In this document: one piece after another, positions 18,448 through 21,400 of the stretch
Layout of the letters: each line of letters opens with the position of its first letter
Numbering within the stretch: the stretch's first letter is position 1
Assembly: GCA_019359415.1 (NCBI GenBank)
Contig: JAHHHH010000023.1
Location: forward strand, 1 to 48,000
Direction: 5' to 3'
Origin: Iphinoe sp. HA4291-MV1
GTDB taxonomy: Bacteria; Cyanobacteriota; Cyanobacteriia; Cyanobacteriales; Nostocaceae
Length of the DNA stretch: 48,000 nt
The notes under the pieces: generated by a model
Databases searched by the model: none
What the model saw: only the letters and a program-made list of their open reading frames with translations
Told to the model about the DNA's origin: nothing
Made by a program: the position numbers and the translations under genes

Positions 18448-21400
18448 TTATTTTCTCTCCATTGTACTTGGTAAACGATTACCATTTTCCATAATTGAGT
18501 ATTTCTTTATACGTCTCGAATCGCGAGAAATTGGCGCTATTGTAGGTAATTGCAGTCCAGAATCTTTGTCTTTCATCTGCTGAATCACCTTAGCCAGTTC
18601 GATTACGGTAGGTAATTCAAATAAGCAGCGTATAGGGAGTTCCACAGAGAAAGCTTCGCGCAACCGAGAAATAACTTGAGTGGCTAGTAGGGAATGTCCC
18701 CCTAATTCAAAGAAGTTATCGTGGATACCGACTTTCACCCCTAAGAGCTCAGTCCAAAGGTTAGCTAGGACCTCTTCGGTAGGATTGCGGGGAGCGACAA
18801 AGTTGTCTTTCAGACTCAGTTCAATATTCGGTGCTGGCAAAGCCTTACGGTCTATTTTGCCGTTGGGAGTTAGGGGCAAAGACGACAACATCACAAACGC
18901 CGAGGGCACCATGTAATCGGGTAGCTTCTGTTTTAGTAAGCCATGTAGTTCGCTGGTGCTGGGTGGGTTGAGGTTAGACACAATATAAGCAACTAGGCGC
19001 TTATTACCTGGTTGGTCTTCCCGTGCGATCGCCACTGCTTCCTGCACACTGGGGTGTTGACTTAGCAGTGCCTCAATTTCTCCCAACTCAATGCGGAAAC
19101 CACGAATCTTCACCTGCTGATCAATGCGACCAAGAAACTCAATGTTACCGTCCGCTAAGTAACGCACCAAGTCACCAGTTTTATATAAAAGACTTACTTT
19201 TGAATTTTGAATTTTGAGAGAAGTTGGAGCGGAGGTTCCCTCCGTCCCTTGCGCGTCTCCGGAGGAGACTCCAATCTTGCCCATAGGGCACGCTTGCGCG
19301 TTGGCGGAGCCTGCGCTTTGCGCATACGGTGATTTTGAATTTTCAAACGGGTTGGGGATGAATTTCTCTAGTGTCAACTCGGGGCGATTGAGGTAGCCCC
19401 TCGCTAAGCCAGCACCACCGATGTACAGTTCCCCAGGCACGCCGATAGGAACGGGTTGAAGATGACGGTCTAGAATATAGACTTGGGTGTTAGCGATCGG
19501 GCGACCGATGGGTGGCACTCCTTTGGCGTCGGTGCAAAGAGCCGTGGTAGCACAAACAGTCGATTCAGTTGGTCCATAACCGTTGAAGAAGCGTCGGTTA
19601 CCAGACCATTGCGCTACCAAATTCGGAGGACAAGCTTCTCCCGCTACGATGATAGTCTGCCAGTCTGGCAATTCCACAGTAGGCATGGCAGCCAACGCTG
19701 ACGGAGGAAGCGTAGCGTGGGTAATACCACCGTTGTGCATCAGTTCAATCAAAGCTGGTCCTGGGAGTAGAGACTCCCGCGTTCCCAAACAAAGCCGCGC
19801 CCCCGCGCAAAGCGTCATGACAACTTCCGAAATTGAGGCATCGAAACTAAAGGAAGCGAATTGCAGAACACGGCTATGAGACTGAACATCAAAAATGCGA
19901 ATCTGTTCTAAAGCAAGGTTGCACAATCCCTGATGGGCGACAAGGACGCCCTTCGGCTTTCCTGTAGATCCTGAGGTGTAAATCACATAAGCTAAGTTAC
20001 TCGCTTGCACACCAGTGCTTGGATTGTCTTGAGTTTGCCCACAAATGACCCCCCAGTCTGCATCCAAGCAAACCACAGGTGCTGTATGCTCAGGCAGATT
20101 TGCCGCCAACTTTTGTTGAGTTAACAGCACCTTAACCTGGGAATCTGATAACATGAAGCTTAATCTTTCCTGGGGATATGCTGGGTCTAAAGGTACATAA
20201 GCACCACCCGCTTTGAGAATTCCCAGCAGTCCCACTATCATTTCTAAAGAACGCTCGACGCAGATACCTATCAATATCTCCGGTCCGACTCCCAAGGTTT
20301 GCAGGTAATGCGCCAGTTGATTGGCACGTGCATTTAATTGTTGATATGTCAACTGCTGATTTTCAAAGACTACCGCCACTGCGTCCGGTGTGCGTTCCAC
20401 CTGTTGTTCAAACAATTGATGGATACACTTATCAGTAGGATACTCTATTTGGGTATTATTCCACTCAAAGAGCAACTGATGCTGCTCGTTGGTACTCAGC
20501 AGTGGTAATTGAGCAACTGATTGCTCTTGATTAGCAATGATGCCTTCAAGCAAGGTTTGGAAATGTGCAATCATCCGCGCAATCGTGGTCGCATCAAATA
20601 AATCGCTGTTGTACACCAATTCCCCACTCAGTCCCGCTTGTGTTTCCTCCATCGACAGGGTTAAATCAAAATTAGCAGTGACCTCCTCCAATTCCAAGGG
20701 AGTGATGGTCAAACCAGGCATTTCTAGTTTCCCCTCCAGAGCATTCTGCAAGACGAACATCACCTGGAACAGAGGAGCATGGCTGAGGGTACGCTCTGGT
20801 TGCAGTTCTTCGACCAGCTTCTCGAAAGGCAAGTCCTGGTGGTCATATGCTGCCAAGGTGATCTCGCGCACTCGTTGTAGTAGCTCATTGAAACTGGGAT
20901 TGCCCGATAAGTCAGTGCGCAGCACCAGCGTGTTGGCAAAGAAGCCAATGAGCGACTCAATTTCACTGCGGTTGCGGTTGGCGATCGCAGAACCAATAAC
21001 GATGTCTTCCTGAGTGCTGTAGCGTGAGAGTAAGGTGGAAAAAGCTGCCAACAGCGTCATAAACAGGGTTACACCTGATTGCTGACTTAGGGTCTTGAGC
21101 TTTTGTGTCACCTCTTGGTTGAGTTGAAAGTATTGAGTGCTACCTTGGAATGTCTGTACTGCTGGGCGGGGGCGATCGGTGGGGAGTTCCAGTAGGGGCG
21201 GTGCTCCTGCTAAGTGTTGCTTCCAGTAGTCCAGTTGTGTTTGCAGCACTTCTCCACTGAGCCACTCACGTTGCCAAGCAGCAAAATCCGCATATTGAAT
21301 CGGAAGTTCAGGAAATGGTAAGGGGCTTCCAGTAGAGAACGCTTCGTAGAAACCTGCAAGTTCCCGATAGAGGATTCCTAAGGACCAGCCATCAGAGGAA

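Follow-up and report, generated by a model that had tools for sequence, protein, structure and literature searches.

How can a gene carry a GC-rich block of repeat DNA in the middle of an enzyme domain and still read open from end to end? The question is raised by a nonribosomal peptide synthetase (NRPS) gene of the cyanobacterium Iphinoe sp. HA4291-MV1 (Nostocaceae), located in the first 48,000 nucleotides of contig JAHHHH010000023.1 (hereafter the window). Between core motifs A6 and A7 of its adenylation (A) domain lie 114 nt that split a tract of tandem heptamers and are translated as 38 additional residues. Our reading, which we consider likely, is that the five-unit CAAAATT tract of a tolerant A6-A7 loop in module 3 of the synthetase received a small, non-coding mobile element of the heterocyst-forming cyanobacteria. 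Positions are window coordinates, and L-numbered loci are contigs or genomes of relatives outside the window.

Boundaries and reading frame of the insert

The host gene is a minus-strand open reading frame (ORF) of 1161 aa without internal stop codons, in which Pfam recognizes Condensation (residues 46-488), AMP-binding (508-848), AMP-binding_C (952-1026) and PP-binding (1055-1116) domains. Core motifs A3 to A10, the HHxxxDG motif of the condensation domain and the carrier serine can all be read intact in the translation. Four NRPS genes of the window (22403..29125, 18448..21933, 15066..18485 and 7720..15069) encode six modules, the last of which is ended by a thioesterase, and this gene order agrees with the assignment of the host to module 3 in an initial annotation of this DNA. 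The features needed for the comparison are the following:

18448..21933, minus strand: NRPS module 3 gene (condensation, adenylation and thiolation domains, C-A-T), 1161 aa, carrying the insert; open ORF, Pfam domains, readable core motifs
19331..19344, minus strand: two heptamer units 5' of the insert in gene sense, GAAAATT CAAAATC, coding ENSK(S)
19217..19330, minus strand: composite 114-nt insert, 38 codons, peptide SPYAQSAGSANAQACPMGKIGVSSGDAQGTEGTSAPTS; its deletion restores the loop length of the paralog and five heptamers, and it matches a 38-residue BLASTP gap against L064:7746-11129
19196..19216, minus strand: three heptamer units 3' of the insert in gene sense, CAAAATT CAAAATT CAAAAGT, coding KIQNSKV
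9098..9137, minus strand: uninterrupted five-unit heptamer tract in the module 6 A domain, used as empty-site comparison

In gene sense the 114 nt thus follow GAAAATT CAAAATC and precede CAAAATT CAAAATT CAAAAGT, and the protein between NPFE and LLYKTGD (motifs A6 to A7) reads ...ENSKSPYAQSAGSANAQACPMGKIGVSSGDAQGTEGTSAPTSLKIQNSKVSLLYKTGD, the full loop being ENSKSPYAQSAGSANAQACPMGKIGVSSGDAQGTEGTSAPTSLKIQNSKVS. Deleting 19217-19330 in silico yields ENSKS followed by KIQNSKVSLLYKTGD (sequence ENSKSKIQNSKVSLLYKTGD), that is, 35 nt of heptamers in 2+3 units and a loop exactly as long as that of the paralog; the frame was therefore kept by the length of the insert alone. A C at both ends allows the insert to be placed equally well at 19218-19331, and this 1-nt ambiguity explains the earlier figure of 113 nt. 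The insert has a [G + C] content of 63%, versus 48% for the remainder of the ORF, and the 38 gained residues, rich in Ser, Gly, Ala and Thr, are probably disordered.

All three sense frames of the insert, and five of the six frames overall, are free of stop codons, so that a single insertion leaves the ORF open automatically. Of shuffles that preserve dinucleotides, only 1.7% match the stop-codon depletion of the 114-nt composite; in the 66-nt core defined below the depletion is not significant and is accounted for by dinucleotide content. An intein, an intron or an embedded domain was ruled out by the size of the insert and the lack of any family match.

Most of what the initial annotation had read from the letters was recovered. 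It had described a nested dispersed-repeat insertion splitting a heptamer tract, which we find as repeat blocks with two and three heptamer units on either side, and a loop peptide between NPFE and LLYKTGD that matches the translation, in frame just upstream of A7 with the ORF open throughout. The GC-rich in-frame insert is therefore present as claimed, with its length corrected from 113 to 114 nt (38 codons). What does not stand is the idea that the frame survived through adjustment of heptamer number combined with a 113-nt insert: the heptamers still number five, the two parts of the insert (66 and 48 nt) are both multiples of 3, and the three sense frames are open.

The paralogous A domain of module 6 (second module of ORF 7720..15069), which is 91% identical to that of module 3, harbors 5.3 uninterrupted TTGAATT units at 9098-9134, coding ENSKFKIQNSKFNR, so the five-heptamer loop that the initial annotation had placed at 9098-9137 is indeed there. 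Two syntenic clusters, L064 (a JGI contig) and L065 (Scytonematopsis contorta HA4267-MV1), have the same gene order (PLP enzyme, cyclodeaminase, bimodular NRPS, C-A-T NRPS, further NRPS), with a C-A-T gene of 1127 or 1129 aa at the position of the host gene. BLASTP of the host against L064:7746-11129 gives 55% identity and a gap of exactly 38 residues (NPFENSKS[38]KIQNSK versus NPFNNSQS--QIPNSK). Both syntenic loops consist of five heptamer units without an insert, ATCAATT plus four CCCAATT in S. contorta and AACAATT CCCAATC followed by three CCAAATT in L064. Since the syntenic module 3 genes have an A domain of another type, the paralog is the only like-for-like empty site.

These clusters also point to the origin of the tract. 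Their short loops read NNSKL, encoded by AACAATTCAAAATTG, which represents about two proto-units, and the step in GY..TGD distance from 28 aa to 35 aa equals three units (21 nt) exactly. The length of five units is constant in three clusters while the unit sequence drifts, which implies ongoing slippage under a reading-frame constraint. Elsewhere in the A domain, at residues ~497-510 of L065:15323-18712, module 3 of S. contorta reads WNDTGNSQLAISNSQLFSELFEAQ where L064 reads WNETSADYPYKQCFSELFEAQ; in L065, part of the conserved beginning of the A domain seems to have been replaced by a tract resembling heptamers. The heptamer of the two A-domain loops also occurs in an intergenic tract of the window (40826-40885, 8.6 AATTCAA units) that contains no inserted element.

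A nested element and its copies

The alignment of copies defines a basic element of 66 nt, ACCG AAGATTGGAG TCTCCTCC nnA GACGCGCAAGGGAC GGAGG nnn CCTCC G CTCCAACTT CTCT, and in the NRPS copy a 48-nt piece is nested in this element, behind the first four bases (ACCG). Its parts, and its relatives in the window, are:

19327..19330, minus strand: 5' end of the 66-nt element, ACCG (alignment with the 66-nt copies L055, L059 and L010)
19279..19326, minus strand: 48-nt nested piece TAT-GCGC-AAA-GCGC-AGGCTCCGCCAACGCGCA-AGCGT-GCCC-TAT-GGGC, two short hairpin units (missing from the 66-nt copies, identical at the same site in L021)
19217..19278, minus strand: other 62 nt of the basic element, AAGATTGGAGTCTCCTCC-GGA-GACGCGCAAGGGACGGAGG-GAA-CCTCCGCTCCAACTTCTCT (from the alignment; variable triplets are predicted hairpin loops)
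6077..6342, plus strand: second copy of the element, intergenic, interrupted by ~187 nt of nested GC-rich repeats (6142-6328), without heptamer flanks
2728..2775, plus strand: intergenic relative of the 48-nt nested piece, its short stems differing in a compensatory way

The variable triplets of the 66-nt element are confined to the predicted hairpin loops, the stems being constant (fold z-score only -1.9), and the 48-nt piece splits into hairpin units of ~26 and 22 nt. Among the few copies, stems pair as GCCC-TAT-GGGC versus GTCC-AAA-GGAC versus CCC-GGA-GGG, and as GCGC-AAA-GCGC versus GTCC-TAC-GGAC. The terminal inverted repeats are imperfect: ACCGAAGATTGGAG matches the reverse complement of GCTCCAACTTCTCT at 11 of 14 positions with one gap. 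Copies are 66, 114 (+48) or 138 (+24) nt long. Rfam, promoter and terminator scans of the insert gave no match, which excludes a known intron or an RNA of riboswitch type.

Two other places in the window have blocks in common with the insert, one at 6077-6141 together with 6327-6342, the other at 2728-2762 (a 28-mer with one mismatch and an exact 19-mer; 0.00-0.01 expected by chance); the initial annotation had located these blocks at 6035-6350 and 2745-2762. The 48-nt piece is also related to 6050-6092, again with compensatory stem differences (for example GCCC-TAT-GGGC versus GTCC-AAA-GGAC). Outside the window, scans of public collections with the core GACGCGCAAGGGACGGAGG revealed true copies in Scytonema tolypothrichoides (L054), at two loci of Scytonema sp. 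PCC 10023 (L055 and L059) and in two metagenome contigs (L010 and L021), and the core block stands in different composite arrangements in Nostoc, Calothrix and Tolypothrix. The copy in L021 harbors the identical 48-nt piece at the same site as the NRPS copy, with 24 nt more. The 20-mer core has 12 matches in 185,579 species genomes, 11 of them in Nostoc, Calothrix, Tolypothrix or Scytonema; the twelfth, in a GC-rich Pyrinomonadaceae gene, was dismissed as chance. A metagenome scan with a 19-mer gave 47 matches, five of which are true copies; the other 42 are unrelated, nearly all of them coming from a single gut-bacterium gene and the few others being chance matches to GC-rich contigs. A genome-contig collection that lacks the source genome has no exact match to a 52-mer of the insert, and plasmid BLAST gave no true copy, only a chance match in Cupriavidus. 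At the protein level, a word-index search with the 51-aa loop peptide returned no candidate, missing the source protein as well, and an exhaustive HMMER search with the same peptide returned one marginal repetitive match.

The heptamer context recurs: five of the seven distinct copies are bordered by CAAAATT or CCAAATT units (the copies at window position 6077 and in L054 do not), and the L010 copy is flanked by CCAAATT units on both sides. Moreover, several copies are translated. Besides the NRPS, the coding hosts are a STAND/WD40 protein (L055, linker), an ABC exporter (L010, linker), a histidine kinase (L021, C-terminus) and a kinase with a related block (L048), and in all five of these unrelated genes the shared block is read as ...DAQGTE.... 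The two alternative sense frames are Arg-rich, with RRARDGG and TRKGRR. The chance of one shared frame is (1/3)^4, ~0.01, for five copies, and (1/3)^3, ~0.04, for the four copies embedded in heptamers. These five cases thus no more than suggest a preference for the DAQGTE frame among three open sense frames. For the antisense orientation the exclusion is trivial, since every frame of an AATTTTG tract contains TGA.

The common frame, together with the conserved length of five-unit tracts in three clusters despite unit drift, could be read as co-option of the insert: it might be a flexible loop for docking or spacing, its RNA hairpins might modulate translation, or it might split a slippage-prone 35-nt tract into 14 and 21 nt and thereby stabilize the reading frame. 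The paralog and the syntenic genes, however, do without it, the frame bias amounts to five cases, the antisense orientation is excluded on trivial grounds, and no terminator, promoter or Rfam family is present in the insert. We therefore regard co-option as very unlikely.

Loop tolerance and the state of module 3

An insertion of a mobile element, as we prefer to read the locus, would have proceeded in steps. Slippage would have lengthened a proto-repeat within the loop's own codons from two to five units (+21 nt), held to in-frame lengths. The resulting five-unit tract in the A6-A7 surface loop may then have served as a landing pad for a heptamer-seeking element, and the hairpin-forming 66-nt element with imperfect inverted ends would have inserted there together with the nested 48-nt module, by a transposition mechanism that we infer. 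The 114-nt composite, stop-free in every sense frame, would have left the gene open and added 38 residues, and its persistence may be explained by a loop that tolerates extra length and by selection that removes insertions breaking the synthetase.

The loop is variable in nature. The span GY..YKTGD measures 31 aa in 149 of 188 A domains drawn from the 120 best homologues, with a tail to 48 aa, and it is 76 aa in the insert-bearing domain. Those longer loops of other Nostocales NRPSs that were inspected as DNA likewise hold repeats, namely (AAAGTCA)x4 in L061 and GGAGCAG-like units in L062 and L063, and in gene 1 of L064 AATTCA remnants enclose a small GC-rich insert. In the window itself, the A6-A7 loop of module 1 (ORF D, 22403..29125, minus strand) reads EKAVRAASPTGEGKR and is coded by the GC-rich repeat-like GTTCGCGCAGCGTCTCCGACAGGAGAAGG at 26327-26371. 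All of the 60 best-matching solved A-domain structures align to the host as two stretches split at the insert (LgrA has 4 residues where there are 52 here). In interrupted A domains (Labby et al. 2015), extra sequence between core motifs is likewise said to leave the host fold intact, and it reportedly consists of a methyltransferase or another catalytic domain that is folded and in most cases lies between A8 and A9 or A2 and A3. The present case differs, as residues 849-951 have no Pfam match and the insert consists of 38 low-complexity residues between A6 and A7 without a folded auxiliary domain.

Purifying selection acts on the insert-bearing A domain: relative to the paralog, dN/dS is 0.17 (dS 0.32), and 0.08-0.13 in the 60-codon windows adjoining the insert. 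Polarized with 20 outgroup sequences, 18 amino-acid changes are derived in the domain with the insert, versus 22 in its paralog. Synonymous divergence between modules 3 and 6 (8734-10242 versus 18829-20451) is mosaic, with dS of 0-0.1 at codons 60-180 and 0.8-1.05 at codons 360-480, a pattern that points to recent gene conversion or to the swap of part of a domain inside the cluster.

The neighboring ORF B (15066..18485, minus strand) also harbors in-frame GC-rich repeats in the condensation domain of module 4, namely RHMPQRGKPAHGSGS (15 aa, 45 nt, within 18132-18182) and LRDATRT (7 aa, 21 nt, within 17814-17840), both missing from the paralogs and from the L064 counterpart. The cluster thus contains at least three lineage-specific inserts of 114, 45 and 21 nt, and since all these lengths are multiples of 3, the case for selection is better argued from them; they are consistent with a filter that removes frame-breaking insertions. 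The 21-nt unit of ORF B is similar to a repeat at 44961-44993, and tandem repeats inside ORFs also occur at 45689-45751 (16-nt TCCCCGTGTCCCCCAC, 3.8 copies, ORF 45150..45980) and at 47602-47836 (45- and 66-nt units, ORF 46178..47893).

Several observations weigh against the insertion of a mobile element into a tolerant loop. No target-site duplication is present at the insert, as there are five heptamers with and without it and only the 1-nt C ambiguity, and no transposase is found in the ORF list of the window, a genome-wide search for a cognate transposase or insertion sequence not having been made. The A domain has no close orthologue, its best homologue being 62-67% identical and the syntenic genes being of a different A-domain type. 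In an AlphaFold check with a 26-sequence alignment, pLDDT is 21-29 in the insert, but it is low from A5 to A8 both here and in the insert-free paralog used as control, and so does not bear on loop position or disorder. Finally, the locus is known from one assembly, a metagenome-assembled genome (MAG): the 1161-aa protein is 100% identical to a protein of the MAG of Iphinoe sp. HA4291-MV1 (Nostocales), on a single contig, and its next-best homologues are 62-67% identical.

A rival reading is that the insert has crippled module 3, the ORF being intact only as a result of a recent insertion that happened to be a stop-free multiple of 3, and the module being skipped or the cluster dying. In its favor, the insert lies 15 residues before the Asp of A7, in a loop of 76 aa (GY..TGD) against a natural maximum of 48, and retention of the ORF needs no selection. 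A related block shows that such damage can occur. In Nostoc sp. MAG P12591 (L048:2790-2880), the composite repeat GAGAAGACTGAGC...GAACTTCTCCTAAGGGAGACGCGCAAGGGACGGAGG lies in frame in a large kinase gene, and its in-frame TAG splits the gene into two ORFs; therefore not every insertion is harmless. Against a crippled module 3 stand the dN/dS of 0.17, derived substitutions that are not in excess (18 versus 22), the intact core motifs of the insert-bearing domain, and the fact that the repeat-derived loop or domain extras of the cluster are in frame in four of four cases. This explanation is only weakened, because a very recent insertion would leave no signal of decay, and we consider it unlikely. 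Of the two alternatives put forward in the initial annotation, a tolerant loop is thus favored by the variable loop length, the repeat DNA in other loops and the selection data, and an impaired module 3 is less likely. In our estimate, the module 3 enzyme is somewhat more likely active than not.

The single assembly leaves another explanation, in which the assembler threaded the element into the heptamer tract from heptamer-flanked copies elsewhere in the genome, and copies elsewhere do share 11-17 nt of identical heptamer flank. However, the heptamers at the junctions between unique NRPS sequence and the element are only 14 nt (left) and 21 nt (right) long, so that k-mers of ~30 or more across them would need real reads. 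The NRPS gene resumes in frame on both sides of the insert, and comparable in-frame inserts are present in ORF B. An assembly artefact is thus, in our estimate, very improbable.

Directly upstream of the NRPS genes lie an ornithine-cyclodeaminase-family gene and a gene for a pyridoxal phosphate (PLP)-dependent enzyme (PALP) at 29309-31648, both kept in L064 and L065. This pair resembles SbnA/SbnB, which make L-2,3-diaminopropionate (Dap), so the peptide may contain Dap. A major facilitator superfamily (MFS) transporter gene follows the cluster (6393-7727). The spacer between two of the NRPS genes (21934-22402) is nearly all tandem repeats, with TTATCAG x2.9, TGGGAAT x10.3, CTCCCCTG x3.4 and CTGTTCA x3.7.

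Relation to known repeats and significance

The tandem 7-nt units abundant in the window resemble the STRR-type (short tandemly repeated repetitive) heptamers that Mazel and co-workers reportedly described in 1990 in heterocystous cyanobacteria, where they are said to be classically intergenic. The five-unit tract differs from these in that it codes a loop and is conserved in length across three clusters. The element itself recalls two kinds of repeat known from Nostoc punctiforme and its relatives, the small dispersed repeats (SDR) and the minitransposons, reported by Elhai and co-workers (2008, Genome Res 18:1484) to be modules of ~21-27 nt, embedded in heptamers, nested, with compensated hairpins, restricted to heterocystous cyanobacteria and without an obvious transposase. 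The likeness concerns the short modules (the extra 24 nt in L021, the ~26- and 22-nt units and the 21-nt insert of ORF B), the heptamer context, the nesting, the Nostocales-restricted core and the short hairpins, whose stem differences among the few copies may be compensatory. By this analogy, the 66-nt carrier with its imperfect inverted ends may correspond to an Elhai minitransposon. Unlike the SDRs, the copy described here is translated inside a protein-coding gene, and the likeness is one of general description, not of match to the SDR1-SDR8 consensus sequences. Published descriptions of the SDRs of Nostoc are cited in PMC3116915, PMC4390886 and PMC3733652.

The element also shares features with MITEs (miniature transposable elements bearing inverted repeats), in-frame insertions of which have been reviewed (PMC10969869): it has imperfect terminal inverted repeats but no target-site duplication. 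According to that review, MITE insertions inactivate microcystin synthetase genes in Anabaena. These are likewise miniature elements in a cyanobacterial NRPS gene, but they disrupt it, whereas here the frame is kept and the domain is under purifying selection. The same source presents Rickettsia palindromic elements (RPE; Ogata et al. 2000) as short, palindromic, selfish and numerous sequences of ~150 bp that lie in frame in many unrelated genes with a conserved peptide, and are thought to sit where the fold tolerates them (PMC10969869). Similarly, the present element is in frame in several unrelated genes with one conserved peptide frame, in a naturally variable NRPS loop and, in other hosts, in linkers or termini. 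It differs from RPE in that there is no sequence relation, the phylum is another, a handful of coding copies are known, and heptamer tracts are targeted.

This parallel raises the conceivable, although rather doubtful, idea that the 66-nt heptamer-seeking element is a coding-compatible selfish element, the cyanobacterial counterpart of RPE, which seeds protein loops and splits a potentially phase-variable tract. A length that is a multiple of 3, the lack of stop codons and one benign frame (SPKIGVSSxDAQGTEExSAPTSL) would fit this idea. If it were true, the element would colonize heptamer tracts expanded in loops and linkers and seed disordered segments in NRPSs, kinases, transporters and STAND proteins. 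It would also have split the slippage-prone 35-nt NRPS tract, where gain or loss of units could otherwise switch the synthetase on or off.

The finding is a known kind of selfish DNA tolerated inside a gene and brings no new mechanism or system. For annotation, it is a caution that what looks like a GC-rich low-complexity stretch of a Nostocales protein can be a translated repeat. The locus also represents a natural experiment on how much extra sequence an A6-A7 loop carries, useful for NRPS engineering, for example in the choice of sites for tags or linkers. More generally, it suggests a stepwise route from a codon-level proto-repeat to a heptamer tract and then to a landing pad for a mobile mini-element, by which selfish DNA may lengthen the loops of cyanobacterial proteins.

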